Counted from the first letter of the stretch, positions 1 through 43,560 are shown. The stretch is DNA of 64,000 bases from Acidobacteriota bacterium (GCA_963666215.2 CAXWPL010000001.1:192001-256000); one strand, 5' to 3'. Translations and numbers: made by a program. Notes: generated by a model not told the origin, from the sequence alone.

Positions 1-1776
1 GGCGCCATCCGCAGGGCCGAACAGCATGGCGAAGTGAGTGCCTCGCCCTGGGCGAGAGCGCACCTCGATTCGCGCGCCGTGCTGTTCCAGTATCCGATAG
101 ACAATCGACTAGACAATCGACAGCCCGAGCCCCGTGCCCGCGGCGGAGCCAGAGACGAAGGGACGGAACAGGCGGTCGATCTCGCCAACGTCCATGCCGC
201 ACCCGGTGTCTTCGAACTCGACCCGGGCGCCCTGCGGCTGGCGCACCACTCGTAGGCTCAGCCGACCTCCATCCGGCATGGTCTGGATGGCGTTTCGCGC
301 CAGGTTCCAGAAGACCTGCTTGATCCGATCGGCGTCTGCGAGGACGAACACCGGCTCGATGTCGGCGTCGTCTGGGACCTCGAGCACCAGGCGATGATCG
401 GGTAGCAGCTCCGCGGAGTTCTGCAGCAGGGCTACCGTTTCGCGGGCCAGGCGAACGATGTCCACATCGACAGGGTCCAGTCGTTTTGGCCGGGCATAGT
501 CAAGAAACTCGTCGATGATGGTGGAAAGGCGCTCTGACTCCCGCGTCACGATATCCATCAATTCGTGCGCCGGGGCGGTATCGAGCGGAATCTCACCTCG
601 GCGTAGCATCTGCAGCGAGCCCGAGATCGACGCCAATGGGTTGCGTATCTCGTGCGCCAGCGACCCCGCCATCCGCCCGAGCAAACCCATCCGCTCGTGC
701 AGCCACAGCAGCCGTTCCATGCGCTTGACCTCGGTCAGGTCCTGAAACATGAAAATCAACCCGCCGTTCATCGGGCTCCCCTGCTCACCCTCGACTTCAG
801 TCGAATCGCGGCGTGGCCGATCGATCTCGCTGGCGCGCGTCACACTCATGCCCACTACGCGATGCGCCTCACCCTCGGGCTCGATTCGATGCTCGGCGCG
901 GATGACTTGGTTGTCGTCATCGAGGCACCCATGCAAATCAAGGAGAAACTGCCTGTCGGAACGGAACGCCTCCCACGCCGGCCGACCGACGAGCTCAGAC
1001 TCGGCCAGCCCTGTAATGCGTTCTGCCGCGCGATTGGTGGCAACCACGAGCCCGTCTCGGTTGGTGGCGATCAGGCCGCTGCTCATCCCCGCGAGCAGCT
1101 GATGGTTGAGTGCTTCCAGCGCCTCAACGGCATACCGCTCCTGATCCAGCTGGCGATGTGCGGAGCGCAGGTGTTCTGCGACTCCAGAGGACACCCAGGC
1201 GAGCAGCGCCGTACCAACGAGCAATCCGAAAACACGAAGCGTGACCTCGGCCCCGCTCACAACCGGCGACGGAGCACCGATCTCGAACTCCCACGCAGGG
1301 AGGCGCCCCGATGCGATGAAGTGCGCCATCAGCCCGTAGGCCGCCGTAGACAGCGCGGCAATCGCAACAGCCTGCGGCCGCGTGGCAAGCGCGCCGGCGC
1401 CCCAGGCAATCAGCAGATACAGCAGCACGAACTGCGATCGAACCCCACCCATGTAGTACACCCAGAGGGTCGCTAGCAGAACGTCGATGGAAAGCTGGAA
1501 TGCGATCCACCCCGACCCCACCGGTCGGCCACCGTACGCCAGCGCGTAGAGCAGACCGGAGGCGTAGATCAGCGCGATCAGGGAAAGCAGGGGAGCTAGC
1601 GAGAACTCGGTCCCGACGAGCAGCTGAAAGTACAGAACCGGCGCCAGAAACGCGGTGGCGACGGTGCTGCGAACCAACAGCAATAGCCGCTGGCTCGAGT
1701 GGCCAGCCAGCGGACCGCCACTGGCGGCCATCCCTGTCCCACCCATCGCGCGTGCTGCAGCTGGAGCGTCTTGCAT
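1..1776 (-). pseudogene. pilS: PilS-like sensor histidine kinase (TM-PAS-HisKA-HATPase) interrupted by a premature in-frame amber stop; 3' end runs off the window
   Basis: H-box LAHEIRNPL, N-box QVFWNLARNA, G1 DTGCG, G2 GTGLGL; lies downstream of pilC. TAG at 109-111 is created by a 12-bp duplication, and the same frame continues SIVYRILEQHGARIEVRSRPGRGTHFAMLF to the window edge. Start placed at ATG 1776 behind an AAGGAAGGGG RBS. Confidence 0.85.
98..121. repeat. perfect 12-bp tandem duplication (TAGACAATCGAC x2) inside pilS
   Basis: Read directly at 98-109 and 110-121; minus strand reads CTG TCG ATT GTC TAG TCG ATT GTC TAT. Confidence 0.97.
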
Positions 1777-1783
1777 TGGCAGG

Positions 1784-1881
1784 CCCCTTCCTTCCCCCCA
1801 CACGTGGGGGGGGGGGAACGAGCCACGAGCCGCGCTCAGGTCGCGGCTCGCGTTGTCGTCCTGCCTCCCACTGGGATTCTA
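1784..1881 (-). promoter_or_regulatory. putative pilS promoter and structured leader with a C11 homopolymer that can pair with the RBS
   Basis: TAGAAT -10-like hexamer at 1876-1881, hairpin at 1824-1852, G11 run at 1806-1816 (C11 on the coding strand) complementary to the downstream GGGGGGAAGGAAGGGG. Confidence 0.45.
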
Positions 1882-1968
1882 TCGTCCCTGGCTCGCGACG
1901 CGTCCGGGCCGACCCGTCAGGTCGGCCGCGCTTGCACACGTCGGCGCTGCGTAGCGGACGAAATGGCT

Positions 1969-2004
1969 GGCGGTCGGAGTCACGCCCCAGCGACCCCGAC
2001 CGCC
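1969..2004 (-). terminator. strong hairpin downstream of pilC, possible terminator or processing site
   Basis: GGCGGTCGGGGTCGC-loop-GTGACTCCGACCGCC about 30 nt after the pilC stop; only a weak U-tract on the coding strand. Confidence 0.45.
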
Positions 2005-2035
2005 CTTTTCTCCGACGAGCCTCGTCTCGAGGCGT

Positions 2036-3235
2036 TCAGATCTTGTTGATCAGGTCGAACATTGGTAGGTACATCGAGACCACGATGCCGCCAATCACCA
2101 AGCCGAGGAACACGATCATCACCGGCTCCAGCAGAGACATCAAACCCTCGACCGCGGTATCGACCTCTTCTTCGTAGAAGTCGGCGATCTTGCTGAGCAT
2201 GGTGCCCAGCGCGCCCGTCTCCTCGCCTACCGCGATCATCTGCGTGACCATTGGCGGGAAGGCACCCGAGCTCTCGAGCGGCTCCGCCAGCGACTTGCCT
2301 TGCTCGATGCTGTCGCGCGTTGTGAGAACAGCGTCCTTGACGATGCGGTTGCCGGCAGTGTTGGCGGTGATCGTCAAGCTCTCGAGGATCGGCACGCCCG
2401 ACGACACCAATGTAGAGAGGGTGCGGCAGAATCGAGCCACGGCGATACGCCGCATGATCATGCCGATGACCGGCGTCTTGAGAATCAGCGAGTCGATCAG
2501 CAACTCTCCGCTGTCGGTCTTGTAGTACTGCTTGAGCGAGTAGATGGTGCCCATGATGCCGGCAACCACGAACGGGAAGTAGGCGGCGATGAAGTTCGAC
2601 GCCATGATGACGATGCGCGTTGGCAGCGGCAGCTGAGCGCCCAAGCCGGAGAACAAGGCCGCGAAGGTCGGAATGACCTTCCACAGAATAACCAGGACAA
2701 CCAAAACGGCCACGCTGACGATGACGATGGGGTACATCGAGGCAGCTTTCACCGCCGACTTGAGCTTGACCGCCTTCTCGATATAGGTGGCCAGCCGCCG
2801 CAGGATGATGTCGAGAATACCGCCGGCCTCGCCTGCGGCCACCATGTTGCAATAGAGATCGGTGAACACCTGCGGGTGCTGGCGCAGCGCGTCCGCAAGG
2901 TTGGCGCCGCCCTCCATCTCGCCGCGAACCTGATCCAGAATCCGGCCAAAGCCCTCGTCGTCAGCCTGCTTCGAAAGGATGTCGAGACACTGCACCAGCG
3001 GCAACCCGGCGTCGATCATCACGGAGAACTGCCGAGTGAAAACCGAAACCGCCTGATGGCTGACTTTCGACTTCTTCTTGAACAGCGAGAAGCCACTCTT
3101 GACCGGCTGCACCTTGGTAACTCGGATGCGCTTGCGACGCAGCTGCTGCGACACCGCATCGGCTGAGTCTGCCGTGATGGTGCCCCCTGTCGACTGACCG
3201 TTCCGACCGATCCCAGACCACTCGAAATTCGCCAT
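2036..3235 (-). CDS. pilC: type IV pilus inner-membrane platform protein PilC (T2SSF family)
   Basis: FTRQFSVMIDAGLPL, AGEAGGILD, VGEETGAL and MYLPMF motifs; downstream of pilT. Confidence 0.95.
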   Translation of the reverse strand: MANFEWSGIGRNGQSTGGTITADSADAVSQQLRRKRIRVTKVQPVKSGFSLFKKKSKVSHQAVSVFTRQFSVMIDAGLPLVQCLDILSKQADDEGFGRILDQVRGEMEGGANLADALRQHPQVFTDLYCNMVAAGEAGGILDIILRRLATYIEKAVKLKSAVKAASMYPIVIVSVAVLVVLVILWKVIPTFAALFSGLGAQLPLPTRIVIMASNFIAAYFPFVVAGIMGTIYSLKQYYKTDSGELLIDSLILKTPVIGMIMRRIAVARFCRTLSTLVSSGVPILESLTITANTAGNRIVKDAVLTTRDSIEQGKSLAEPLESSGAFPPMVTQMIAVGEETGALGTMLSKIADFYEEEVDTAVEGLMSLLEPVMIVFLGLVIGGIVVSMYLPMFDLINKI

Positions 3236-4437
3236 TATCTACCGCGATTGCGCGACGGACGCATGCGCGCCGGCGCGTTTCCCCCGGGTCCGCCAGGCGG
3301 ACGGGGTTCTCGCTGAAGCGTCTCAGAAAGGTCGCGCGGGTCGCTGCTCGCAGCGAGGGCCACCTCGGGGCTGATCTTGCGCTCCACAACCAATCGCGCC
3401 AGATCTTGGTTGAACGTCTTCATGCCGTGCCCAGCCTGTCCGGACTGCATCGACGACATGATCTGGTGGATCTTGCCCTCGCGGACCAAGTTACGAATGG
3501 CTGCGTTGGGAATGAGAACCTCCTGTACGAGGACCCGTCCCCTGCCCGAGATGTGCGGCAGCAGCGTCTGAGAGATCGCTCCTTGGAGAGTGAACGACAA
3601 TTGCGTGCGGATCTGCGATTGCTGCTCAGGCGGAAAGATGTCGATGATGCGGTTGATCGTCTGGATTGCCGAGTTGGTATGCAGCGTGCCAAACGTCAAG
3701 TGGCCGGTCTCGGCGAGCTTCAGCGCCAGACTGGTGCTCTCGAGGTCGCGCAGCTCACCAATGAGCACGCAATCGGGATCCTCGCGTAACGCCGAGCGCA
3801 TGGCCGCCGCGAAGGAGTGTGTATCGGCGTTGAGCTCGCGCTGGTTGACGATGCAGTTCTTGTGATCGTGCAAGTACTCGATCGGATCCTCGATCGTGAT
3901 GATGTGGTGTTTCTTGGTCTCGTTCACCAGGTCGATCATGGCGGCGAGGGTGGTGCTCTTGCCGCTGCCGGTGGGACCGGTAACCAGCACCAGGCCGCGC
4001 GGCAGGTTGCAAAGGTCCTTGAAGCCTTGTGGCAGCCCGAGCTCATCGAACGACGGGATCCGCCACGGAATCACGCGCAGCGCGCCTGCCACCGAACCCC
4101 GCTGCATGAAGACGTTGGCTCGGAAGCGGGCCAGGTCCTTGACGCCGAACGAGAAGTCGATCTCGAGCTTGTCCTCCATCGCGGCGCGCTGCTCGTCGCT
4201 CATCACCGCGTAGAGAAGCCCCTGCGCGGTCTTCGGGTCGAGCGGCGCGTAGGGCATCGGACTCAAGCTTCCGTCGATCCGTACCTGGGGCGGCACTCCC
4301 GCCGTGATGTGAAGGTCGCTTGCACCCAGCTCGACCATCTGCCGGAGAAGCTCGGAGAGATCGGGCACTGACCCACCGTGAGAGATCTGCGCGTTCGGAT
4401 CCCAGGTGACCGCACGTGCCGCTCCACTCATGGACAT
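3235..4437 (-). CDS. pilT: type IV pilus retraction ATPase PilT
   Basis: ASDLHI, Walker A GPTGSGKSTT, TIEDPIEY, LREDPD, His box GHLTFGTLHT, AIRNLVRE motif. Confidence 0.96.
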   Translation of the reverse strand: MSMSGAARAVTWDPNAQISHGGSVPDLSELLRQMVELGASDLHITAGVPPQVRIDGSLSPMPYAPLDPKTAQGLLYAVMSDEQRAAMEDKLEIDFSFGVKDLARFRANVFMQRGSVAGALRVIPWRIPSFDELGLPQGFKDLCNLPRGLVLVTGPTGSGKSTTLAAMIDLVNETKKHHIITIEDPIEYLHDHKNCIVNQRELNADTHSFAAAMRSALREDPDCVLIGELRDLESTSLALKLAETGHLTFGTLHTNSAIQTINRIIDIFPPEQQSQIRTQLSFTLQGAISQTLLPHISGRGRVLVQEVLIPNAAIRNLVREGKIHQIMSSMQSGQAGHGMKTFNQDLARLVVERKISPEVALAASSDPRDLSETLQREPRPPGGPGGNAPARMRPSRNRGR

Positions 4438-4484
4438 CCGCGTCCTCTCCTGGCCGTATCTCGGGGTGGCATGTCACGCATACC

Positions 4485-4600
4485 ATTCGATGTCAAAACG
4501 TCATATACCGATCTCGACCACATCTACGAAGATTATTCGTATGCTTTTCATCGCTAAACAATAGTATTAACCACTATTAGATAATTTTGATCACACTGGA
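4485..4600 (-). promoter_or_regulatory. AT-rich region upstream of pilT with two palindromes
   Basis: Abrupt AT-rich island; TACGAA-N5-TTCGTA at 4525-4541, AATAGT-N7-ACTATT at 4560-4578, TTGACA on the minus strand at 4491-4496. Confidence 0.5.
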
Positions 4601-4788
4601 TCGAATCGTATGTGTGCGGGTGCACCGCCGCCGTCACCACGATGAGACGGGCGCCAACGGGTCGTTTCCGGCCGGCGGCTCGATTGCCCCGACGCGGCTA
4701 CCCGCAGCCGAGAGTCCATCGAAGGATGTGGCGCGGCGTAGAGGTGGTGCGGGCGCTGGACAGCCGCGGGTGAGGGTGAAGCGACTTC

Positions 4789-5826
4789 CTAGGCGCGAGC
4801 GACCCGAATTTCGCCGTTACGGCGCTCGACGTACCAGTCGGCCGTGCGCGCCAGCCCGTCGCGGAACGACATCCGCGGCTCGTAGCCGATGAGCTCGGTG
4901 GCGCGATCGATTGCCGCCATCGAGTGCTGCACATCACCTGCTCGTCGGGCCGTGAATTCGGGCTCGATGTGGGTTCCCAGGTAATCGTTGAGCGCGGCAA
5001 CGAGATCGAGAAGGGTAGCGCTCTCTCCGACCCCGATGTTGATGGCCTGCCCGGCCGCGTCATCCGTTGCCGCCCCGAGATCATCAACGTTGGCAGCGAG
5101 CAGGTTCGCGGCCACAACGTTGTCGATATACGTGAAGTCGCGCGACTGCGTGCCGTCGCCGAAAATCAGCGGCGACCGCCCGTCGAGCATGCACGCGACG
5201 AACTTGGGGATCACCGCGGCGTAGTCGGAAGCCGGATCTTGACGCGGCCCGAAGACGTTGAAGTAGCGAAGCGCCACCGTCTTGATGCCGTACTCACGGT
5301 GCCAAATTGCCAGGAGCTCTTCGCCCGCGAGCTTGCTGAGCGCATAGGGAGAAAGCGGCGTAGGCGTCATGGTCTCGATCTTCGGCAACGTGGGGGTGTC
5401 GCCGTAGACCGACGACGAACCCGCCATCACGAGCCGCTTTACGCCCGCCTCACGACAAGCCTCGAGCAGGCGCGACGTCCCCTCGATGTTGACTCGGAGA
5501 GTCGCGGCCGGGTCAAGAAAAGAGCGCGGCACGGAAGCAATGGCCGCCTGATGGAAGACGGCATGGACACCATCGAGCGCGCTACGGTAGGCATGCGAGT
5601 CGAGAATGCTCGTTTGCAGCAGCTCGAGGTTGGTGGCTTCGCCGATGCCCCACGCCGTGCCCGACTTACTTCTTGCGAAGCCCAGCTCATCGGCGACGTC
5701 ACTCAGGTTGTGCACATAGCCGCTGAAAAGATCGTCGACGACAACAACCCGATGGCCGCGCTGCAGCAACGCCGACACGATGTGCGAGCCAATGAACCCT
5801 GCGCCACCAGTTACCAGATACTTCAC
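4789..5826 (-). CDS. NAD-dependent UDP-sugar 4-epimerase (WbpP/GalE-like extended SDR)
   Basis: [24 protein letters not shown] (YxxxK), [24 protein letters not shown]. The GTG start at 5826 overlaps the pilB stop (GTGA). Confidence 0.92.
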
Positions 5827-6285
5827 AGTGTCGTCTCCCGGAGAACCTCTTCGACCGAGGTAACCCCCTGCCAAATCTTCACGAGGCCGCTCTCGCGCAA
5901 GGTGATCATCCCTTCCGCGCGAGCCTGTACCTTGAGCTCGGCGTTGTTAGCACCGTTGAGGATCAACTCGCTCATTCGACCGCTCAGCTGCATCACCTCG
6001 AACAGCGCGACGCGGCCCTTGTAGCCGGTCTCGTTGCATTTGTCGCAGCCCATCGGGTGGTACACCGTCACCGCCATCGCTTCCTCGGCGGCAAAGCCTA
6101 CCTCCATCAAGGCTTCCGGATCGCAAGGCGCCACCTCGCGGCACTGCGAGCACAGCCGTCTCACCAGGCGCTGAGCAACAATCAGCTGCACCGATGACGC
6201 CACCAGAAAGCGCTCGACGCCCATGTCGATCATGCGGTTGATCGTGCTCGGTGCGTCGTTCGTATGCAGCGTCGACAGCACTAGG

Positions 6286-7328
6286 TGTGAGTTCTAGGTA
6301 GGTTGTTCACGAACTCACCCCTGAGAGCCGAGCGATCGGCGGTGTCATGCCGATGCCGGCGTGGGGGCGGTGACGATTGTAGTGGTTGAGCCAGGGCCGT
6401 AGAGCTCGAGTACGTCGAGCTGAGGTCTGGTAGCAGGTGCCGTAGGCCCACTGCTCCTTGAGTGTGCGGATGAAGCGTTCGGCTTTGCCGTTGGTTCTGG
6501 GGGTGTAGGGCCGGGTGTAAATGTGCCGGATCTCGAGTTGATGGCATAGGCGATTGAAGCGCTTCGAGACGTAGCCAGGCCCGTTGTCTGTCATCACTCG
6601 GCGCACCGCTACTCCCATCGAAGCGAAGTGCTCGACGGCTCGCTGCAGGAACGCTGTGCAGGTGTGTTGGTCTTCGGCGGGCAGCACTTCGACGTACGCC
6701 ACCCGAGAGTGATCGTCGATAGCGACGTGGGCGTTCTCCCAGCCGACGCCGTAGGCCCGCTTGGAGCGGTCGCCGTGGATGCGGTGTCCAGGTCGCCGGA
6801 TACGGGCCAGTTTCTTCGTATCCAGGTGCAGTAGGTCACCGGGGTGCTCGTACTCGTAGCGAACGATCTCGGGCTTGGGCTCGAGCGCATCAAGCTTGGC
6901 GAGTCCGAGCCGCTTCAGCCACGCCGAGACGGTCGAGCGCGGCACAGCCAACCTTCGGCTGATCTGCCAGGCCGTCAGTCGCCGCCGACGTAGCTTGTCG
7001 ATCTGCCTCACAACTCCAGCGCTTGTTGCGTGCGGACAGCACGTCGGCCGGCTTGATCGATCGAGCAGCCCGGCCTCACCTTCTCGCTCGTATCTATCCA
7101 GCCACTTGTAAACCGTTCGAGCCGACACGCCGAGCGCCGCCGCCGTTTCCGTCACGGGCTCCGCCCGCTCCCGGACTCGGCGGACCATCTCTCGGCGTAT
7201 ATACGGCATCGTGCGGGCGTTACCATGCAGCTGCATCGGGCGCTCCTTCTGAGGTCGTGGAGTCTTTTGAACAACCCCATTGATCTCAGAAGTGAGCCCC
7301 GATGTGAACAACCTACTTAGAAAACACA
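6286..7328 (-). mobile_element. IS481-family insertion sequence, copy 1 (1043 bp)
   Basis: TGT...ACA ends, 25-bp imperfect IRs (22/25), 6-bp TSD ACTAGG at 6280-6285 and 7329-7334. Confidence 0.97.
6307..7236 (-). CDS. IS481-family DDE transposase (309 aa)
   Basis: MQLHGNART start, HTH, PGDLLHLDTKKL, AIDDHSR, VMTDNG, TNGKAERFI, YNRHRPH. Confidence 0.96.
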   Translation of the reverse strand: MQLHGNARTMPYIRREMVRRVRERAEPVTETAAALGVSARTVYKWLDRYEREGEAGLLDRSSRPTCCPHATSAGVVRQIDKLRRRRLTAWQISRRLAVPRSTVSAWLKRLGLAKLDALEPKPEIVRYEYEHPGDLLHLDTKKLARIRRPGHRIHGDRSKRAYGVGWENAHVAIDDHSRVAYVEVLPAEDQHTCTAFLQRAVEHFASMGVAVRRVMTDNGPGYVSKRFNRLCHQLEIRHIYTRPYTPRTNGKAERFIRTLKEQWAYGTCYQTSARRTRALRPWLNHYNRHRPHAGIGMTPPIARLSGVSS

Positions 7329-8968
7329 ACTAGGTGGCCCGTCAGCGCGGCCTTGATGGCGATATTCGCGGTCTCGGCGTCGCGGATCTCACCCACCAGG
7401 ATGATGTTCGGATCCTGCCGCAGGAATGCGCGCAGCGCCGCCGCAAAGTTGAGTCCCACCTGCTCGTTGATCTGCACCTGGTTGATGCCGACCAGGTTGA
7501 ATTCCACCGGGTCCTCGGCGGTCATGATGTTGGTACCGATCTTGTTGATGTTCGAGAGCGCCGAGTAGAGCGTGTTCGTCTTTCCCGAACCGGTCGGTCC
7601 GGTAACCAACACGATGCCGAACGGAAGCTCGATCGCCGCTCTGAAGGCATCGAGTGACGATTTCTCGAATCCCAGGTCGGCGAGATTGAGCTTCAGGCCC
7701 TCGGGGTCGAGAAGACGCATGACGATCTTCTCCCCCCAGATCGTCGGCACGGTCGAGACGCGTAAGTCGAGCTCGCGCGTACGGTCGTCCAGCTTCACAC
7801 GAATCTTGATGCGACCATCCTGTGGCCTACGCCGCTCGGAAATGTCGAGCTCACTCATGATCTTGATGCGAGACGCGATTGCCCCCTGCATGGACTTCGG
7901 CGGTCTCATCACCTCGTACAGCACGCCGTCGATGCGGTAGCGGACGCGCTGAATTTTCTCGTACGGCTCGATGTGGATATCCGAGGCGTCGCGCCGCAGC
8001 GCGTCGGTGAGCAACAAGTTGACGAGCTTGATGACCGGCGCATCACCACCTGCTTGCGACAGCGACTCGAGGTCGATGTCCTCCTCTTCGACGATGTGGA
8101 GCTCACCGGGCCCGCGAATTTCGGCCTCGATGTCCTCCATCATCTGGCGCATCTTGGCTTCTTGCTCGTCGCCGTAGCACCGCCCCATCGCCTCGGTAAT
8201 CGCGCGCTCCGAGGCCACCAGAGGTTCGACCCGTCGGCCAGTGGCGAACTCGATGTCGTCGATGGCCACCACGTCGGTGGGATCGACCATAGCCAGACTG
8301 ACCGACTGAGAGTCGGCGGCGAGCGGCATGACCAGATAGCGCCGCGCCATGTCCTGGGGCACCAGGATCAGGATCTCGGGAGGTATCTTCGCGGCCTCTA
8401 CATTCGCTGCTGGCACGCCGAAGTGTGTCGACAGGAGCCCGATAAGGTCTTGTTCGCTGATCAGCTCGAGAACAACAAGGAGGTGTCCTAGCCGCTCGCC
8501 CGTCTCCTGCTGCATTTGCAGGGCACGCTCGAGATCCTGTTCGGAGACGAGTCCGCTCTCGATGACGATGCGCCCGAGACGCGCGCTCGAGTGTCGCCGA
8601 ACCGGATTGTTCCCCGAGCCGGAAGTGGTCGCAGTTCGCTCGCTGGAAGCCACGTCTCGCCTATTCTCATATCCCGACGTTCCGCCGACCGACTATCGGA
8701 GGCGCAACACGCCGAGAATCCCCTCGCCCCTGTTGGACGGACACAAGGGGCCAGAAGCCGCCGACACACCGCGCGAACGGACGCCGCCTGACCTCTAGCC
8801 GCTCAATCGAGATCAGCTTACCGAGACAGCCCTACACCACAAAGCACTAATTTCTTCTTCAAAGCGTGCAAATACATCGCCCTACATAGCATAGCGTCTT
8901 CGTGCCTATACACAACTGCTTGTGGCCATGCCCGACAGCCCTGGCCCACAAGTGGACCGAGGACGCAG

Positions 8969-9703: not shown

Positions 9704-10414
9704 CTATGAGCCCGAGCCAGCGAGGAACAGCCATTCGCTGTAGCGAACGCGCTTACGGTATATGCGCACGCTGTCCTGCTGCGAATAGGAGCCCACTCCT
9801 ATGATGCCGTTGGACGCTCCTGGACCGGTTGTCGAACCGGAGCCCGTGAAACCCTGACCGCCGAGACCGCGCGATTGGCCGAAGCCAGTGGAGCGGCCCG
9901 ACGTACTACCGGCGTTCTCGAACATATTGGGCCGTCCAGTCTGTGTCGCGGCTCCTGAGCCTCCAAAACCGGTCGCGGACCCTCCGATGCCAATTCCGAC
10001 CCCGTCGACTGCTTCGGCGAAATTCCCGAGCAGCAGATCAATCGTTCCGTCGACAAGATCTTGGTTACGGAACACCCGCCACTGGCCGTCGGCAACCATC
10101 GGATCGGGATACAGCTGCCGGATGCAATTGGCTTCGATGAGCTCATCCAGTTGCTCCGGTGCATCGCCTCCGGATTCCGCCTGAAAGCACTGTAGCGCTC
10201 GCACGTACTGCTGGCCTCTCCAGATCAACTCCTGTTCCTTCGCGCGCCGGTCAACTGCGACGATCGAAGTCACCACCAGCCCGAGGGCAACGTTGACCAC
10301 TGCCACCGCGATCATGAGCCCGACCAGGGTGTAGCCGTCGGCACGACAGACCGCGTCGTCTACATGGCGCAGATGCCATCGCCTCACCGTGATTGAAAGA
10401 TCACCATTCGGCAT
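9704..10414 (-). CDS. prepilin-like (pseudopilin) protein lacking Glu5, with Gly/Ser/Thr-rich insertion
   Basis: G|YTLVG cleavage motif plus hydrophobic helix, KEQELIWRG, IRQLYPDPM, IIGVGSYS...YSEWLF; start codon uncertain. Confidence 0.8.
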   Translation of the reverse strand: MPNGDLSITVRRWHLRHVDDAVCRADGYTLVGLMIAVAVVNVALGLVVTSIVAVDRRAKEQELIWRGQQYVRALQCFQAESGGDAPEQLDELIEANCIRQLYPDPMVADGQWRVFRNQDLVDGTIDLLLGNFAEAVDGVGIGIGGSATGFGGSGAATQTGRPNMFENAGSTSGRSTGFGQSRGLGGQGFTGSGSTTGPGASNGIIGVGSYSQQDSVRIYRKRVRYSEWLFLAGSGS

Positions 10415-10823
10415 ACGGAACCCCGTTGAGCCCTTCGCCCTCGGCACCCGACCAGAGCTCCCAGATGCCGGCCGGCTGTCCCTGATCAACCATCATCCAC
10501 GGCGCGAACTCAACCTGCCAGGTGTCGGAAGCCTTCGTAATCGGGTCCACCGGGATGCTACGCAGATAGCCCTCTTCAACAAGGGCCTCGAGCGCCGGTG
10601 GATAGAGCCCCTTGTCGGTGACGTACTCCTCTAGTGAGCTTCGCATCCGCTGAAGATCCTCCAGCAGAACGGCTTCGCGCGCCCGCAGTGTGGCGTCCTG
10701 ATACGCAGGCAAAGCGTAGACAACGAGGATTCCGATTATCGCCATCACGACGATGAGCTCGAGCAACGAGAAGCCGTGCTGCCGGCTACTCCAACACCCG
10801 TCGACGCAGCGGTCGTCAGTCAT
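10401..10823 (-). CDS. GspG/PulG-like pseudopilin
   Basis: G|FSLLE N-methylation motif, REAVLLEDL, YPPALEALVEEGYLRSIPVDPIT. Confidence 0.9.
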   Translation of the reverse strand: MTDDRCVDGCWSSRQHGFSLLELIVVMAIIGILVVYALPAYQDATLRAREAVLLEDLQRMRSSLEEYVTDKGLYPPALEALVEEGYLRSIPVDPITKASDTWQVEFAPWMMVDQGQPAGIWELWSGAEGEGLNGVPYAEW

Positions 10824-11937
10824 CTTCGACCTCCGTCCAGTCGAGCACCGCAGTCAGAAACCCGTGGTCACGGGATTCGATGCGTTGATAGAGCGAATCG
10901 AGGTCTCGCCAGGAGGCAACGCAAGAGATCAGCTGCTCGGCTGGCAGCTCCTCGCTCAAAACCATGTCCAACAGGTAGGCGACGTTCCGCTGCGCAGTAA
11001 AACGAATGTCCCGCGGATCAACGTCGACATCGGGTGTATAGCCGCAGGCAATGAGGCTGAGTTGCTTTCGATAGAAATATGCCGGGTCGAGCGGATTGTA
11101 GTCAGGCCGCGGTTGACGCCGTCCAGGGAAGCCCAGCACACAGACGGTTCCTCCAGGCCGCGCCAACTCGAGAGCGGCGCGCCAATCGGCCCAAAGCTCG
11201 CTCGTCGTGACAACTATGTCGACGCCCGTGCCGCGTGTGGCGCGGTCGAGATCCGACCTCCACGCCGGCTTCGAGGCCGCAGCACCGCGCGCGTTGAGAC
11301 GCCCGCCGACCGCAGGCTCGTCTGCCTCGCTGAACGACGGCTTTTCGTAAGCCCCCGCGGCGCCGAACTCGAGCGCACGCTGGCGATTCTCAGGTTGGTT
11401 GCTGAAGCCGAAGACGCGCGCGCCGAATCGACTCGCCACAGCCACCGTCGCCAACCCGAGCGTACCGAGTCCGAGAACAGCGACATACTGACCCGGCTTG
11501 AGATCTCCACGCAGCAGCGCGCTGTGACCCTGGTGAAACAGATAGGTCGTCGAGGCTCGAACGAGTTGATCCTCGGTATAGCCCTCCATCACCTCGGGCA
11601 GCTTGAATAGAATCTCATCCTCGTCGCAGACGAAGTGGCTGCGATGCGACTGCAACGTCAAGATCAGATCGCCTGGCGCCAGTGCCGTGACCCACTCGCC
11701 CGTGGCAACAACGCGTGCGAGGTTGCAGTAACCGACCACTCGCGAGTGTGTGCGGTCGGGGCGCAGCGGCCGGAGACCCTCGTAGGCGGCAAGCTCGGTG
11801 CCGGGCGAGATCGCGGTGTACAACGTCTGTGCGGCAATCTCCCGGAACCCGAGTCCTTCGAGCACCAGCGTCTCGCGCCGGACCTCTAGTCTTCGAGGCT
11901 CGACCACGTGTACAACGCGTGCATCTACGCTCCTCAC
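10816..11937 (-). CDS. MDR-family (zinc-binding alcohol dehydrogenase-like) oxidoreductase
   Basis: AISPGTELA, GYCNLARV, Rossmann GLGTLG, GVDIVV, ARPGGTVCVLG; 8-bp overlap with the downstream pseudopilin. Confidence 0.85.
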   Translation of the reverse strand: MRSVDARVVHVVEPRRLEVRRETLVLEGLGFREIAAQTLYTAISPGTELAAYEGLRPLRPDRTHSRVVGYCNLARVVATGEWVTALAPGDLILTLQSHRSHFVCDEDEILFKLPEVMEGYTEDQLVRASTTYLFHQGHSALLRGDLKPGQYVAVLGLGTLGLATVAVASRFGARVFGFSNQPENRQRALEFGAAGAYEKPSFSEADEPAVGGRLNARGAAASKPAWRSDLDRATRGTGVDIVVTTSELWADWRAALELARPGGTVCVLGFPGRRQPRPDYNPLDPAYFYRKQLSLIACGYTPDVDVDPRDIRFTAQRNVAYLLDMVLSEELPAEQLISCVASWRDLDSLYQRIESRDHGFLTAVLDWTEVEDD

Positions 11938-11952
11938 GCTGTTGAATCCGCG

Positions 11953-12927
11953 TTACCAGTCACGATAGTTCGTCCCGTCAATCGCTTTGGCCAGGCTCTT
12001 GGAGTACACGTCGAAGACGTTGCCTCCACACCACAACCGGTCGGCCGGAGGCTCGCCGTAGCAGCGCAGACCCCAGTCATCTTTCCCGGTCAGCGGGTCT
12101 ATCGGCATACGGCGCAACAAGATCAGTTTCAACGGCTGTCCGTCGGGGCCGACGATCGGCTCCGACGGTGCATCGCCGGCGGCGTCGGTGCCGCCAGGGC
12201 CCACGGCGCCGAACCCGGAAGCGCGGCCAAAGCCGCTCTGGGCGCTCTGCCCGCTCTGGCCCAGCGATCCGGTACCGCCTCTCGAAGCTGAGCTCGCTTG
12301 CCGCATCTGAGCCAACCGATCGGCAAACCTACTCGAAAGTTGCCCGCCGCCAGCCGCGTTCGCTCCACCAAAGCCGCCGGGAGTCGAGCGCACGTCCGCG
12401 CCGCCGCCCCTCGCGCCAGGGCCCCCCAGCCCGAAGCCGCGACCACTCGGGCCACCCGGAGAGAGGCCCGTGCCCGCGCTTCCGACGCCGGCCAAACCGC
12501 CACCACCCTGTTCTTCATCCTCGGCCAGTTGCTGCTGCAAGCCTCCCGTGAGTCCAGCCCCGGTCGACGAGTAGACATCTGACACCTGCGGCGCCACAGG
12601 CGGCATCTGGGCGACTAGCGCGACACCTTCCACCAGGACCTCGAGTGACGGAGGATACCCGTGCATCTGTTCGTCGACCTCGATAAGGCCGGCCTGCGCG
12701 GCATCGTGATAGCGATCGATCGCGTCGCGCAAGATCCGTAAGTTCTGGCGGAGCCTGTACTCCTCTGAGCGCTTCACGCTCCAGCGCGCCAGGGGCAATG
12801 CCGCGGACGCCAACAGCCCGACGATGGCGACGACAATCACCATCTCGATAAGAGTGAACCCTCGACTGGCCGCGGAATCGCGCCGGCGGAGGGAACCGCG
12901 CGACACGCTGCGCCGGCACCGCATCAT
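11953..12927 (-). CDS. GspG-like pseudopilin with a very long Gly-rich internal insertion
   Basis: G|FTLIE, LRDAIDRY, GYPPSLEVLVEGV, then ~160 aa low-complexity sequence, then LRRMPIDPLTG...NVFDVYSKS...YRDW. Confidence 0.88.
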   Translation of the reverse strand: MMRCRRSVSRGSLRRRDSAASRGFTLIEMVIVVAIVGLLASAALPLARWSVKRSEEYRLRQNLRILRDAIDRYHDAAQAGLIEVDEQMHGYPPSLEVLVEGVALVAQMPPVAPQVSDVYSSTGAGLTGGLQQQLAEDEEQGGGGLAGVGSAGTGLSPGGPSGRGFGLGGPGARGGGADVRSTPGGFGGANAAGGGQLSSRFADRLAQMRQASSASRGGTGSLGQSGQSAQSGFGRASGFGAVGPGGTDAAGDAPSEPIVGPDGQPLKLILLRRMPIDPLTGKDDWGLRCYGEPPADRLWCGGNVFDVYSKSLAKAIDGTNYRDW

Positions 12928-15098
12928 GGCGTCCCCGACACGCGCACCCTGGAGGGGGACGGCGACACCGGAATCGGCCGGCCCTCGGAATTGCGCAGCA
13001 CCGACGACGCGAAGCGAATGTCGCTTTCTCCCGCGGCGATCGCCTCGAAGGTGAGCGTGGCGAGCGTGCCACTCGCAAGCACTCCGCCACCGTCCCCCAC
13101 GCGGCCGATGCCAATCGCCACACTCCCCTGCTGTCCGCCGACGGCCTGGAAGCTGGTTCGAGCTCCATCGCTACTGAGCACGGAGCCTTCCGTTGCCTCG
13201 ATAAAGCGCAACGCTACGGCGTTGTAGCTAATTCGCAGTCCGGCATTGTTGATCTCGGCCGATCCGGAGAGATTGATCTGCACGCTGAACCGCTGGCCAA
13301 CGGTGGCGGTCAGGATCGCCGGCGTGATCGAGATATCGACCGGGTCGACCGGGTCGACGCCACCTGCCCGGTCGCCCTGGTTGTTCTGGCCACGGCCGCG
13401 GCTGGAGCCCCGACCGCCACCAGTCGAGCCGCCGCCGACATTAGCCTCGGTGCCTACATAGACCGTTTCGAGATCCTCGGCCCTGATGTCCGCCATGCGA
13501 ATGATGTGCGGCGTGATCGCCAACACGATGTCGTTCTGGCTTACCTGCTTCTCGGTCGACGTGAAGATGTTTCGCAACAACGGAATGCTTGACAACACCG
13601 GAATACCGCGAAGCACCGTGCGCTCGTCGTCCCTCAGCAGCCCGGCGAGCAGGTTGGTCTCACCTTCGAGCAACCGCAGAGTCGTCTGCAGGCTTCGAGT
13701 CGAGAATATCGGCAACTGCTGCGGTCCGGTCTCACCGATTACCGACGAGACCTCGATCTCGAGCTGTAGGGTCACCTGATTGTTGTGATGCACTCTTGGC
13801 GTGGCACTGATCCGAATACCAACGTCGCGGTATTCGGTGGTCGAGATCGGAATCACATCGCCGCCCGAAGTGTTCTGCGGGTTGAACGTGGTCGACACCA
13901 CGGGACGTTGTTCGCCAACGAGCATCGACGACAGCTGGCCGTCGGAAGCCCGCAGTTGCGGGTTGGCGATGAGCTTGAAGTCGGTGTTCTCGCGCAGGAA
14001 CTGATACCGCAGTGACGGCACGGTGATGAACACGTCCTGTTGCGTGATGTTGCCGAGATCCTTCAGGGCAAGCCCGACATCGGTCTGGCTCACCGAAGCG
14101 ACCGTAGCAAAGCTCGACAGCGACAGCCCATACTGATCGAGCAGCGCGCGGTTGACTTCGAAGATCTCGACGTCCAAGAGTACCTCGCCGCGCGCTTTGT
14201 CGATCGAGCCGATGATGCGCTCGGCGAGCTCGACAACCTCCGGCGTGTCTCGAATAGTGACCACGTTGAGCTCGGGGTCCTCAGCGACCAGCCGCGCCTG
14301 CAAGATCGTCCGTAGCGTGTTGGCCACCACCTCCGCCTGCGCGTTCGACAGGTAGAATGTCCGCATCACCTGCGTTGTGTACTGTCGGCGTTTGTTTTGG
14401 TTGTCGGGCGCGATCAGAATCGTGTTCGACGACATGACCCGGTAGAAGTGGCCATACGTCAAGGTGATAATCGCGAGGGCCTGCTCGAAGGGGGTGTTTT
14501 CCAGGAAAAAGGAAGTCTCCTCGTTGTCAACATCAGGATCGAACAGCACATTGATACCGGCGAGCCGACCCATCGCGCGGTAGATCTCCTTGAGAGTCGC
14601 GCGCCGGTAATCGAATGTCATCGCACCGGTAGTTCGCGGCTCCAGCATCGGAGTAGGCGACGCGGCCGTGCGTGCGCTCTCGACCGCGTCCTCCAGAGAG
14701 GTGCGGCGTGAGCGTCGGTCGCGTTCTACATCTTCGAGCTCTTCACTGACGTTGCGCAGATCGATCGCCGCGGCCTCATTGGTGGGGTCGAGCCGTACCG
14801 AGAGCTCGAGCTCGAGTTGGGCGCGCTTCAGATCGCCCACACGATGCTGCTTGAGCCCCTCCTGCCGATGGAACAACGCCGCGTTCGTGCGCGCCATCAC
14901 GAGCTTGGATCGGGCCTCTTGATTGTCGGGGTTCTCGTTGAGCACTTCCTGGTATTGGGCGATCGCGGCATCCCAATCACCTTGCCGACTGAGAGCGTCA
15001 CCGCGACGTAGCATCTTGCCGGATGCACAACCGCTCATCGCGATCGCGGCGGCAAGCAGCAGCGTCGCCGAGAGGATCGAAGGCTGTTTCTGACTCAT
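12924..15098 (-). CDS. gspD: secretin (GspD/PilQ family) lipoprotein with N-terminal TPR and C-terminal cohesin-like domain
   Basis: Lipobox MSGC, TPR, RTFYLSNA N-domain, ANPQLRASDG, YRDVGI, GIPVLSSIPLLRNIF, ITPHIIR; C-terminal beta-sandwich GTLATLTFEA. Confidence 0.9.
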   Translation of the reverse strand: MSQKQPSILSATLLLAAAIAMSGCASGKMLRRGDALSRQGDWDAAIAQYQEVLNENPDNQEARSKLVMARTNAALFHRQEGLKQHRVGDLKRAQLELELSVRLDPTNEAAAIDLRNVSEELEDVERDRRSRRTSLEDAVESARTAASPTPMLEPRTTGAMTFDYRRATLKEIYRAMGRLAGINVLFDPDVDNEETSFFLENTPFEQALAIITLTYGHFYRVMSSNTILIAPDNQNKRRQYTTQVMRTFYLSNAQAEVVANTLRTILQARLVAEDPELNVVTIRDTPEVVELAERIIGSIDKARGEVLLDVEIFEVNRALLDQYGLSLSSFATVASVSQTDVGLALKDLGNITQQDVFITVPSLRYQFLRENTDFKLIANPQLRASDGQLSSMLVGEQRPVVSTTFNPQNTSGGDVIPISTTEYRDVGIRISATPRVHHNNQVTLQLEIEVSSVIGETGPQQLPIFSTRSLQTTLRLLEGETNLLAGLLRDDERTVLRGIPVLSSIPLLRNIFTSTEKQVSQNDIVLAITPHIIRMADIRAEDLETVYVGTEANVGGGSTGGGRGSSRGRGQNNQGDRAGGVDPVDPVDISITPAILTATVGQRFSVQINLSGSAEINNAGLRISYNAVALRFIEATEGSVLSSDGARTSFQAVGGQQGSVAIGIGRVGDGGGVLASGTLATLTFEAIAAGESDIRFASSVLRNSEGRPIPVSPSPSRVRVSGTP

Positions 15099-16357
15099 TG
15101 GCTTTTTCTCTTCTTGTTGGCCTTCTCGGTATTCCCTCGAGTACGAGCCTCGTCGAACGTATTGCCGGTCTGTTCTTTTTCTTCCTTGCGCAGCGAGAGG
15201 CGCGTTCGTAGCCCGCCAGCCTCGAGCACAGCGTGGATCATGCCCACTTCGGTCACGCGATAGCCGTCGGGCAACAGATCGCCGGCGGTTACCACGTGGA
15301 CCTGCGTCTCATCCACCAACGTCGCGTAGAACAAGCCATCGGTGCGCACCACTCCGACCAGCGTGTGCGGCATCACCGGGCTGGGCGCACTGTCGCCGCG
15401 ACGGCGGTCGTCGCGAGCACGGGATTCGCGCTCGGCTTCGGCCGCGCGTTGCCGCTGCGCCTGGGCAATGACCGTGGCGCCAAAAGCGAACAGATTGCGG
15501 TTCGACGCGAGTACTTCACTGGCCCCCGCCAACGTGTCGAGCCGATCGAGATCGAGATCGAAGATGCCGGCCTCGACGGGAATCGTCGGCAGCTCCGCCA
15601 GCTCGTCGCGCAATCGTTGTGCGGTGGCCAGCGCACTCGCCGCGTCAACCGGGTTATCGCCTCCGCCGTCGCCGAGCGCGGCCGGGGTTGAGCCGTTGAC
15701 GGTGCTGGGGCCGGCGAGCTCGTCGTTGACCTCGGCGCTGGTGTCGATGACGACCGGATCTTCTGGTAGCTCACCGGCGCGAGCGTAAGCCGGGTCGATG
15801 AAAGCGGTCAGGCTGAGCTGCAGCTGCAAGATACCAGCGGCCTGCCCCTGAGGCGGGGTCGACAAGGCGACACGTTCGACAAGCATGAAGCTCGGGCCGG
15901 TGAGCAGATCGTGCAGCACTCGTCGGATGGACGAGTACGAGCCTCGTACCGGCGCGTCGATCTGCAGCTGCACCAGCGCCAACTCGTTCGCCGGCTGCGG
16001 CTGATAGCCAATCCGGTCGTTCTCGAGCCCGGCCGCGTCGATCGCCGAACGCAACGTCGAGACGACGTCGGCCGTGGTGCCTGAAGCGCGACCCACCCGG
16101 TCGCGCAACTGCTCCAACTCCGCCTCCGCACCCAGAATTCGACCGTACGAAAGCCGCGCACGCTGCAGCGCCGGATCTACCGTCGCTCGCGCTCGCTGCA
16201 CGTCCTGCGCTGCCGCTGACGTCACCGAAGCGGCCGCCCAACGCGGCCGCGTCCAGCCGAAATAACCAACGACATTGGCCGCGACAAGCGCCACCACGAG
16301 AACAATCGGTAGGCGGATCGCGCGCCAGGCGCCCCCGAGCCGAAGGTCGAAGCTCAC
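15095..16357 (-). CDS. PilO/GspM-like protein fused to a C-terminal PilP/GspC-like segment
   Basis: TM helix, coiled coil, PVRGSYSSIRR ferredoxin-like motif, then RNLFAF and VVTAGDLLPDGYRV; operon position. Confidence 0.65.
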   Translation of the reverse strand: MSFDLRLGGAWRAIRLPIVLVVALVAANVVGYFGWTRPRWAAASVTSAAAQDVQRARATVDPALQRARLSYGRILGAEAELEQLRDRVGRASGTTADVVSTLRSAIDAAGLENDRIGYQPQPANELALVQLQIDAPVRGSYSSIRRVLHDLLTGPSFMLVERVALSTPPQGQAAGILQLQLSLTAFIDPAYARAGELPEDPVVIDTSAEVNDELAGPSTVNGSTPAALGDGGGDNPVDAASALATAQRLRDELAELPTIPVEAGIFDLDLDRLDTLAGASEVLASNRNLFAFGATVIAQAQRQRAAEAERESRARDDRRRGDSAPSPVMPHTLVGVVRTDGLFYATLVDETQVHVVTAGDLLPDGYRVTEVGMIHAVLEAGGLRTRLSLRKEEKEQTGNTFDEARTRGNTEKANKKRKSQ

Positions 16358-16953
16358 CGCGAGCCCCCCGATCCACCGCCCGCCGTGTTTTGACTCAACA
16401 AGTAGCGCGCGCCAAGGGTCATGCGGTATAGCCCGTCCGGGCCACGTTCCTCTCGCGTCGGGTAGATCTCCGTGAAGGCGGGCTCGGCTTCCAAAGAAAG
16501 TAGTAGATCCTGCAGACGCGCTGGATCGTCAGCGGCCGCCACCATCGACACGCGCACGTCGCCACCTCCCTCGACCGCCGGCTGTACTAGCTCGAGCCGC
16601 ACGCGATCGGGCAGCAGGCCCTCGAGGTCGTTGAAGATGTCGTCCCAAGGAATGGCTCGCCAGGAAATAACCGCGTTGCCGATTTCCACTGCGGCCGCCG
16701 CGGCGCGCCCTCGGCTCACGTCAGCCACTTGTTTGAGGTCCTCGACCTCGGCCTGCCAAGCATCCACCTCGGTAGACCTGATGGTCATCGCCCTGCCGTC
16801 TGTTGGCTGAGACGGCCACGAGAGCCAAGCCACAAGCAGGCCGTGCATCAACGTCACAGCGGCCGCGGTTGCCGCGACACCGCGCAGCCAGCGCCGTACG
16901 CGTCGCACGTTCTCGACCGGCGCGGTGGCGAGATTCACCGGCAAGTGCTTCAT
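16354..16953 (-). CDS. PilN-like assembly protein
   Basis: VNLAT N-terminal motif, TM helix, WDDIFNDLEGLLPDRVRL; start placed at ATG 16953. Confidence 0.8.
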   Translation of the reverse strand: MKHLPVNLATAPVENVRRVRRWLRGVAATAAAVTLMHGLLVAWLSWPSQPTDGRAMTIRSTEVDAWQAEVEDLKQVADVSRGRAAAAAVEIGNAVISWRAIPWDDIFNDLEGLLPDRVRLELVQPAVEGGGDVRVSMVAAADDPARLQDLLLSLEAEPAFTEIYPTREERGPDGLYRMTLGARYLLSQNTAGGGSGGSR

Positions 16954-17020
16954 CGGTCGTTGCTCCCCGAGCCTGTGTGCCCGGGGCGGCTCTGCAGCAG
17001 CCGCAAGCTCATATTCGTCG

Positions 17021-17989
17021 TCATCCGCGAAGGGCCCCCAGCAGAGCGTCGGTGTGGTCGAACCTCCGAGCAGACCAACCAAGTCCATCGCAACACTCGA
17101 TGGCCGCGGCACTCCAATCGTCGCTGCCGCACACCCACACGTCGTCCACACTCATCTCGAGCCGCTCAGCGATGAACCGCTGCAAGGAAGGCAACTCCTG
17201 TCCAAGCCGAGCTGCCGGCACGCGAGCCCTCCAGGAACGATGAAAGCGCGGCACATCGTCCGCCTCCACCATGCAGGCGAGGGAGCCGTCGGCGTCACAG
17301 AGAATGAGTCGTCTTGTCGAAGAGCCTGCCGATTCCCTCGGCAGCCCATTCATACCGTCGCGGCCACCTCCTGATCGGGCGCCGCTCGAGGCGTGCGACA
17401 CCGCCGCCGAGGCTGCCAGCGTCCATGGAACGACGCGCCCGACGGTCCAGCCAACCTCACCCAACAGGCCTTCGTACTCGTCGATAAGCGCCGCTTGTGA
17501 GCCAATCGAAAGCAGCCAGTCGGTTGGCGCCGGATCTGCGATTGCAGCGCCGTCGGTGGCCGCGTCGGCAAGAGGCTGGCCAGACAACACGGCCCAATCC
17601 ACCCGGGCATCACCCTCGTCCAGCGGCAACAGATCGCGAAGCACCCATCGCGCCATCACCTCGCCCTCGCGATGGTTCGGCACCCCACCCTCGAGCGGCG
17701 CAGACGCCACCTTGGCCGTGGCGTCGGAGAGAACGAGCGCGACGAGCTCCGGATGCTTGGCAAATCCGCGGTCGCGCGCGGTCGCCACCATCTGCCGGAA
17801 CGCCGGTAGAACAACAGCGCGATCGGCGATGTTGGGGCTCTTGAGCCCTGGTCGCAAGGCTCCTTCAGGGAGCTCCACGTCGGCGATGTGCGTCACCTTC
17901 AACGTGCCGTTCCCCTGCGCCACGACCAGGCGCAACCGATCGGCTCCCACAGCCACCGCAACGCGCTCGCGTCGCCCGAACCAACTCAT
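17021..17989 (-). CDS. PilM/GspL-like cytoplasmic assembly protein
   Basis: LPEGALRPGLKSPNI, LVLSDATAKV, EYEGLLGEVG; lies between gspE and the pilN-like gene. Confidence 0.7.
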   Translation of the reverse strand: MSWFGRRERVAVAVGADRLRLVVAQGNGTLKVTHIADVELPEGALRPGLKSPNIADRAVVLPAFRQMVATARDRGFAKHPELVALVLSDATAKVASAPLEGGVPNHREGEVMARWVLRDLLPLDEGDARVDWAVLSGQPLADAATDGAAIADPAPTDWLLSIGSQAALIDEYEGLLGEVGWTVGRVVPWTLAASAAVSHASSGARSGGGRDGMNGLPRESAGSSTRRLILCDADGSLACMVEADDVPRFHRSWRARVPAARLGQELPSLQRFIAERLEMSVDDVWVCGSDDWSAAAIECCDGLGWSARRFDHTDALLGALRG

Positions 17990-18025
17990 CGGAGAAGTCT
18001 CCCTCTACTGATCACAGGCGCCCGG

Positions 18026-43486: not shown

Positions 43487-43560
43487 CTGGGGCGGCAGGA
43501 TTCGAACCTGCGAATGCCGGATCCAAAGACCGGTGCCTTGCCTGACTTGGCGACGCCCCA
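43487..43560 (-). tRNA. tRNA-Gln (anticodon TTG); CCA end not encoded (G-CCT)
   Basis: TGGGGCG/CGCCCCA acceptor stem, anticodon loop CT-TTG-GA, GCAGG-TTCGAAT-CCTGC T-arm; conserved position before prs. Confidence 0.96.

Follow-up and report, generated by a model that had tools for sequence, protein, structure and literature searches.

Probable stepwise loss of type IVa pili by recent mutation in an IS-rich lineage of uncultured Acidobacteriota

Type IV pili serve in adhesion, motility and DNA uptake, and they are receptors for phages. We analysed a 64,000-nucleotide stretch of DNA from an uncultured Acidobacteriota bacterium (GCA_963666215.2 CAXWPL010000001.1:192001-256000; hereafter the window), whose left 8.7 kb carry a type IVa pilus gene cluster with two lesions. 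The gene of the extension ATPase, pilB, is split by an insertion sequence (IS) of the IS481 family, and the gene of the sensor histidine kinase, pilS, is stopped by a short tandem duplication. We consider it probable that type IVa pili were lost stepwise in this IS-rich lineage, by ordinary recent mutation, and that the lesions are accidents rather than parts of an evolved switch. A first-pass annotation of the window had reported both lesions together with a run of 11 cytosines (C11) in the pilS leader, and had proposed either very recent selection against pili or a contingency locus toggled by IS excision and repeat slippage. The lesions and the run are present as it described them, and its 'very recent' agrees with the existence of near-identical contigs carrying intact PilB (P0242) and intact PilS ends (P0245 and P0246). 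The contingency locus is supported by none of our tests.

The element in pilB is well delimited. Domains and families were called with Pfam and NCBIfam. The 5' part of the gene (7331-8653, minus strand, codons 1-441) encodes an MshEN-type N-terminal domain, the Walker A motif, the Asp box and the Walker B motif, and matches Pfam MshEN and positions 3-240 of the 370 of the T2SSE profile. The 3' part (5823-6281, minus strand, codons 442-593) encodes the His box and the zinc-binding C-terminal region, and matches T2SSE positions 240-370 of 370. Between them lies an IS of 1,043 bp (6286-7328, minus strand, in the same orientation as pilB), which starts with TGTG, ends with CACA and has terminal inverted repeats that agree at 22 of 25 positions. 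The 6-bp target duplication CCTAGT lies on either side (6280-6285 and 7329-7334), and the junctions on the minus strand read ...GGC CAC CTA GT / TGTG...(IS)...CACA / CCTAGT GCT GTC G. The 309-residue transposase (6307-7236) scores 310.4 bits against NF033577, 'IS481 family transposase' (cut-off 224), and matches Pfam LZ_Tnp_IS481, rve and rve_3. The insertion falls between codons 441 and 442 without loss of coding sequence, and the open reading frame (ORF) of the 5' part runs five codons into the IS (VVFSK) before ending at 7313. When the IS and one copy of the repeat are removed in silico, the His box of secretion ATPases is restored. Since the split lies between Walker B and the His box, we infer from how such ATPases are known to be built that neither fragment is a working ATPase.

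We compared these genes with two sets of relatives. A search of genome contigs with PilC as query gave 80 related loci, all at most 62% identical and all from Acidobacteriota metagenome-assembled genomes (MAGs; Thermoanaerobaculia, Vicinamibacteria and others), with no conspecific among them. Contigs of sister strains were traced through look-ups of exact sequences and of 90% identity clusters in a protein collection. These look-ups found intact PilB and intact PilS on sister contigs. The two PilB halves of the window (residues 2-440 and 443-593) are identical to those of the intact protein of 593 residues (P0242), where they are joined by Leu-Val and where the whole scores 736.5 bits against the PilB model TIGR02538 (cut-off 675.65). 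The halves abut with exactly one codon, a Leu inside the target duplication, in 56 of the 56 related loci that hold both.

The lesion in pilS is of a different kind. The truncated pilS-like gene (109-1776, minus strand) encodes a transmembrane region, a PAS domain, a HisKA domain and a HATPase_c domain cut at position 80 of 111 (Pfam); its ATG is at 1776, and the start given by the gene caller in the protein collection is at 1731. Tandem Repeats Finder (TRF) identifies an exact 12-nt tandem duplication (98-121, minus strand; period 12, 2.0 copies, 100% match), in which the unit GTCGATTGTCTA occurs twice on the coding strand, giving ...CTG TCG ATT GTC TAG TCG ATT GTC TAT CGG.... The duplication keeps the reading frame, and the premature stop arises because its junction spells an in-frame TAG (109-111, CTA on the plus strand), a more specific account than the first-pass report of a stop by duplication. 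The stranded 3' remainder (1-108, minus strand) shares its frame with the upstream ORF, encodes the end of HATPase_c (Pfam positions 78-106 of 111) and runs off the edge of the window. It continues ...YRILEQHGARIEVRSRPGRGTHFAMLF, exactly as in the intact alleles P0245 and P0246, both of which lack the duplication. The stop comes directly after the G-x-G-L-G box and removes the end, about the last quarter, of the ATP-binding domain, so that Pfam covers positions 2-80 of 111 in the window versus 2-105 of 111 in intact P0246. No stop or insertion occurs at the duplication point in any of the 67 relatives whose match reaches the end of PilS (among them, one is cut short by its contig and another stops 13 residues further on). 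TRF finds no second exact lesion of this kind in the 64 kb. We rejected a sense reading of the TAG, as many genes of the window end in this codon. With the premature stop, pilS has also gained a CTAG at 109.

The sister contigs indicate that both lesions are young, polymorphic and separable. Many of these contigs carry truncated BamA, TamB or GspF, which points to frameshift errors, and we trusted only intact states and IS-derived tails. The intact PilB comes from a contig of 793,512 bp that also encodes the exact secretin and GspF of the window, and whose PilT differs at 2 of 400 residues; the strain is thus a distinct one, though very closely related. An undisrupted PilS end (P0245) is found on a 28,673-bp contig. 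The exact IS-tailed PilB of the window (P0001, 2 contigs) and its exact truncated PilS (P0121, 3 contigs) both list a 972,574-bp contig as their longest, and hence the haplotype with both lesions has been assembled at least twice. A contig of 21,268 bp carries an IS-tailed N-terminal half of PilB (P0243, ending GHLVVFSK) and the C-terminal half (P0249), yet has a PilS of 602 residues without the duplication (P0246), which makes the two lesions separable. If the IS insertions are one event, the IS would have preceded the duplication in pilS.

Other contigs carry further variants. A more distant strain, represented by a 392,941-bp contig and differing at 7 of the 724 secretin residues, has an IS tail (P0413) at the same pilB site. 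Its PilB fragment P0241 stops after residue 255, where the next codon in the window, CAG, is one change away from TAG. On a 54,175-bp contig, P0293 ends in 'GHLAGC' at the codon of the IS insertion, and on a 9,557-bp contig P0028 diverges after GPTG into a tail of 66 residues that has no match in the window and a single marginal match among the related loci (E = 0.015). P0241 and P0244, the latter with a frameshift-like tail, were not counted as independent selected lesions, because the truncated BamA, TamB and GspF on the same contigs point to assembly frameshifts. Reading the pilS state of the contig with intact pilB from the cluster tables was also rejected, as the tables are incomplete (one sequence on 3 contigs for the ATPase of the neighbouring cluster, and 7 variants for the secretin). 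Strains are mosaic within 20 kb: the window agrees exactly with the 972,574-bp contig in its pil proteins but with the 793,512-bp contig in its secretin and GspF, each of which is one residue off the version on the 972,574-bp contig. This may come either from recombination or from consensus mixing.

An IS hit in pilB is, on its own, unremarkable. Three copies of this IS are present in the window, two more than the first-pass annotation mentions. The second (46004-47046, plus strand) differs from the copy in pilB by 1 mismatch and lies inside the stop codon of glyA, where its target duplication keeps the stop and leaves the gene whole. The third (56962-58010, plus strand) is degenerate, with many indels and a broken transposase frame, and sits at the 3' end of tamB, upstream of bamA. 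The target duplications of the three copies are CCTAGT/CCTAGT, ACTAGC/ACTAGC and CCTAGT/CCTAGG. The 90% cluster of the transposase has 268 members, and its exact sequence is present on 12 contigs. The tetranucleotide CTAG is four-fold under-represented in the window (found 52 times, where base composition predicts about 208), and many of its occurrences are stop codons. As a consequence, an IS that targets NCTAGN is steered to gene ends, which is also why the other two copies sit harmlessly. After dropping the sites inside the IS and the duplicated ones, there are 46 CTAG targets, 3 of them occupied; two of the 46 lie in pilB and another two in pilS. By simple arithmetic, at least one of three random insertions would fall in pilB or pilS with a probability of about 24%, and in pilB alone with one of about 13%. 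Given an abundant IS and a rare target that is hit repeatedly, the insertion in pilB is not surprising.

The site in tamB (56956-56977) bears on how often the same target can be hit. In the window the tail of TamB reads LVVFSK, and on the 972,574-bp and 793,512-bp contigs it reads LVVSSR (P0424 and P0428), which matches the reverse-complemented right end of the IS, i.e. the opposite orientation at the same CTAG. The two tails seem to indicate either separate insertions into the same site or a polymorphism in orientation, which might also explain the noisy third copy. Elsewhere in tamB, at codons 957-970 (about 54570-54610), where the gene of the window is whole, two sister contigs have it broken by separate frameshifts at a distance of 13 codons, and one of these frameshifts falls at a run of five cytosines; real variation and assembly error are both conceivable.

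The C11 tract (1806-1816, minus strand) lies 30 nt upstream of the pilS ATG at 1776 and is followed by ACGTGT, six guanines, the ribosome-binding region AAGGAAGGGG, 7 nt and the ATG. It is real, unusual and specific to this lineage. No other homopolymer of at least 7 exists in the window, the next being twelve runs of 6. Runs of at least 8 are missing from all 70 pilC-pilS intervals of relatives, and runs of at least 10 are missing from 1,246,503 bases of related loci, where the longest is 9. The predicted fold of the leader pairs the C run with the G-rich ribosome-binding block (z = -2.5 against shuffles, with 5 of 200 shuffles as good). When the tract was varied in silico from 4 to 15 C, the unpaired probability of the ribosome site stayed between 0.31 and 0.47 with no trend, so that accessibility gives no clear sign of a translational switch dependent on tract length over this range. 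Neither a sigma-70 promoter nor a terminator was recognised in a scan of 1700-2100, and a search of the whole window against Rfam gave nothing in the pilS leader, its only match being a tRNA at 43487-43560. Two strong GC-rich hairpins without a U-tail lie in the pilC-pilS spacer (1820-1860 and 1960-2005, minus strand), one of which, with an 11-bp stem, is just upstream of C11.

These observations lead us to favour the following succession of events. A very active, CTAG-targeting element of the IS481 family landed in one of the only two CTAG sites of pilB and split the extension ATPase. As the system has no extension motor other than PilB, pilus assembly would then be impossible, and PilT and PilC, although whole, would be useless. 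At a second step, whose place in the order is suggested by the sister contig with the IS and an intact pilS, a sub-lineage would have gained the 12-nt duplication and with it the stop in pilS. Truncated PilS should fail to phosphorylate its partner regulator PilR and thereby keep transcription of the pilin low, as expected from the PilS-PilR model in Pseudomonas (as outlined in PMC6058289). This second lesion could be neutral decay after the first, or could have been selected for halting wasteful pilin production. Once pilB was dead, pilS was free to decay, and a second hit there needs no special explanation. The presence of intact and broken alleles among near-identical strains fits fluctuating or recent selection on piliation, and it also fits simple relaxed constraint. 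Pilus-specific phages are a textbook cause of selection on piliation, and selection against pili in this lineage is plausible, as pilus phages of P. aeruginosa select mutants of pilB and pilR time and again (PMC13170266). In principle, both lesions could be reverted, through loss of one repeat copy or through excision between the 6-bp target duplications.

Several points weigh against this succession of accidents. The strain closest to the window by the identity of its secretin, GspF and PilB has an intact pilB, and in a more distant strain the IS occupies this very site. Such a pattern requires two independent insertions or one precise loss, and a precise loss would favour a switch. Under pure accident, the presence of two cleanly revertible lesions beside an outlier such as C11 is a coincidence. 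The effect of truncating PilS on pilin expression is extrapolated from Pseudomonas and may be different here, since it differs between organisms; in Myxococcus, pilS is dispensable for the expression of pilA. Finally, many of the sister contigs carry frameshift errors, including truncations of essential genes such as BamA.

The pattern of the strains is also compatible with a contingency locus. Under this bet-hedging explanation, piliation is toggled by insertion and excision of the IS481-family element, by gain and loss of the 12-nt repeat and by slippage of C11, allowing escape from phages and a later return of pili. Reversion of either lesion would give the exact wild-type sequence, on and off alleles are present among near-identical contigs with the lesions occurring separately, the pilB site is empty in the closest sister contig and occupied in a more distant one, and C11 is a strong outlier in a sequence that otherwise avoids homopolymers. 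Short tandem duplications are known to revert: the sources describe the loss, at about 1e-6, of a 30-bp duplication in the manganese exporter BP3410 of Bordetella pertussis (PMC8546581), the reversion by slippage of a phage-selected 12-base duplication in pilD of Pseudomonas aeruginosa (PMC13170266), and the reversion of agr duplications and of poly(A) tracts (PMC6686034). However, IS events are characterised in PMC11868660 as typically of low frequency and unidirectional and not as phase variation, and inactivations by IS481 in B. pertussis are called permanent in PMC8546581. The C tract is non-coding, has no counterpart in the 70 intervals of relatives and has no clear predicted effect of length. 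The duplication is likewise absent from the 67 comparable relatives, and a 12-nt repeat in two copies is not a standing repeat array. The further stop in the IS-broken pilB of one sister contig looks like decay and not like toggling, and reinsertion at one site, as seen at tamB, means that shared occupancy needs no excision. We regard a contingency locus as rather improbable. A more elaborate form of it, in which a site-specific IS481-family element is a reversible gate on pilB, layered with the 12-nt repeat of pilS and a newly evolved C11 into a system of bet-hedging on piliation, is compatible with the empty site of the closest strain and the occupied site of the distant one, and we consider it quite improbable.

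Coincidence without any selection on pili is unlikely, although parts of the evidence agree with it. IS expansion and general gene decay would in this case have placed two lesions in one cluster by chance. The first-pass annotation had pointed out that a high genome-wide rate of IS insertion and of pseudogenes could explain both hits. The abundance of the IS agrees with this in part, with three copies in 64 kb, a large transposase cluster and 4 of the 46 targets within pilB and pilS, and truncated genes, including a split tamB, do occur in sister contigs. Against chance, 41 other ORFs of the window were scanned and show no pattern of truncated domains, and the other two IS copies are at gene ends. 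Moreover, the only exact duplication-type lesion in the 64 kb is also in the pil cluster, which makes up about 6 of the 57 kb of coding sequence, for a joint chance of a few percent, calculated post hoc. We give very little credence to an artefact of assembly or consensus, i.e. a misassembly or mixed sub-populations in a metagenome-assembled contig. The mosaic of alleles in the window, with pil proteins from one contig and secretin and GspF from another, and the indels of the third IS copy would be expected from such an artefact, but the 6-bp target duplication of the IS in pilB is perfect, 2 contigs encode the exact IS-tailed PilB and 3 the exact truncated PilS, and about 45 other genes of the window are free of frameshifts.

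The rest of the pilus cluster is intact. On the minus strand, the order of the genes is pilB (in two pieces around the IS), a sugar epimerase gene, pilT, pilC, a spacer of 260 nt and pilS. The order pilB-pilT-pilC-pilS is kept in Acidobacteriota MAGs, with pilT before pilC in 76 of the 80 related loci and pilS after pilC in 70 of 80. A sigma-54 response regulator directly follows pilS in 45 of the 58 related loci that extend far enough, and prepilin-type genes lie downstream of pilS in one related locus (L003). In the genome studied here, pilR and pilA are expected past the left edge of the window, and pilD and pilMNOPQ are outside it as well. One source names the sensor kinase after pilC as PilS in homologues. 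The gene of the retraction ATPase, pilT (3235-4437, minus strand), scores 482.1 bits against TIGR01420 (cut-off 319.1). The platform protein gene pilC (2036-3235, minus strand) encodes two T2SSF domains (Pfam), and matches in relatives span its residues 1-399; among the NCBIfam models PilC scores highest (451.2 bits, cut-off 700), and GspF gives 391.6 (cut-off 424). PilT and PilC are both of full length relative to Pfam, NCBIfam and relatives. Together with the identity of the PilB halves to the intact protein, this bears out the earlier observation that pilT, pilC and the two pieces of pilB show no other decay. Judging from the equivalog models for PilT and, through the intact sister allele P0242, for PilB, whose cut-offs are both exceeded, the cluster can be assigned to the type IVa pili.

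The NAD-dependent sugar epimerase gene between pilB and pilT (4789 to about 5832, start uncertain, minus strand) was absent from the first-pass annotation. It scores 219.5 bits with Pfam Epimerase, and its top NCBIfam match is a TviC-type UDP-GlcNAcA C-4 epimerase, with a score under the cut-off. No epimerase match is found in the fetched flanks of any of the 80 related loci, which places the gene outside the conserved cluster. It could be a lineage-specific insertion, perhaps tied to glycosylation of the pilin or of the surface.

A second cluster (9704-20982, minus strand) was described in the first-pass annotation as an intact neighbour resembling a type II secretion system (T2SS). It is indeed intact: all its ORFs are whole, and the ATPase, platform protein, secretin and pseudopilins are complete by Pfam coverage. 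It includes three prepilin-type proteins, a secretin, a GspM-like protein, a PilN-like protein, a Zn-ADH-like gene and one unassigned protein. The ATPase (18026-19693, minus strand) scores 530.3 bits with the NCBIfam GspE model and 531.7 with PilB, both below cut-off, and the platform protein (19690-20982, minus strand) scores 285 with GspF (cut-off 424). The scores for GspD (127.7 against 351) and GspG (39 against 88.9) are also low, as every equivalog score in the cluster is under its cut-off; only Pfam T2SSM_b passes (24.3 against 21.7). 'T2SS-like' is a fair label, but with the T2SS equivalog models below their cut-offs the cluster is best called secretion/pilus-like, its type being unassigned. 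The secretin (12924-15098, minus strand) has an N-terminal TPR region and a C-terminal cohesin-like domain, and the Zn-dependent dehydrogenase-like gene (10816-11937, minus strand) is located among pseudopilin genes.

As it stands, the locus offers a clean and well-documented example of ordinary, recent gene loss. It suggests that a burst of an IS481-family element, similar to that of Bordetella, shapes strain-level differences in a major surface machine of uncultured Acidobacteriota. There is also a practical consequence: a genome bin 'having pilB, pilT, pilC, pilS' would score as piliated, even though the assembly of pili has here presumably been lost. If reads were to reveal switching, phase variation would here be seen outside pathogens, where examples are rare.

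The locus shares features with several known systems. The C-stretch of the Bordetella fim genes is an example of a homopolymer contingency locus in the promoters or leaders of pilus and fimbrial genes. As in such simple-sequence loci, the window has a long C run just upstream of a pilus-related gene in a sequence otherwise lacking these runs; unlike in them, the run is absent from relatives, no promoter was recognised around it and no effect of its length is predicted. The duplication in pilS resembles that of BP3410, another short and exact tandem duplication, in an IS481-rich genome, that inactivates its gene until one copy is precisely lost. The duplication in BP3410 is described as fixed in about 98% of strains and argued to be adaptive (PMC8546581), whereas that in pilS is on 3 contigs only, beside intact alleles. 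In P. aeruginosa, a pilus phage is reported to select repeatedly for mutants of pilB and pilR (PMC13170266). The similarity to this phage-selected pilus loss includes the same machine, pilB and the PilS-PilR system as recurrent targets and an in-frame tandem duplication of 12 nt, although here the duplication is in pilS and acts through a stop codon. The closest likeness to the insertion in pilB is with IS481 of B. pertussis, for which an NCTAGN target, 6-bp repeats and insertions in both orientations at the same prn site are reported (PMC3279416). The host of our element is an uncultured environmental acidobacterium and not a host-restricted pathogen, and the target is a pilus extension ATPase. 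The two elements nonetheless belong to the same family, are about 1 kb long, produce 6-bp NCTAGN duplications and are present in many copies and, as in prn::IS481, a gene for a surface structure is knocked out in some strains only and both orientations occur at a single site, here in tamB.

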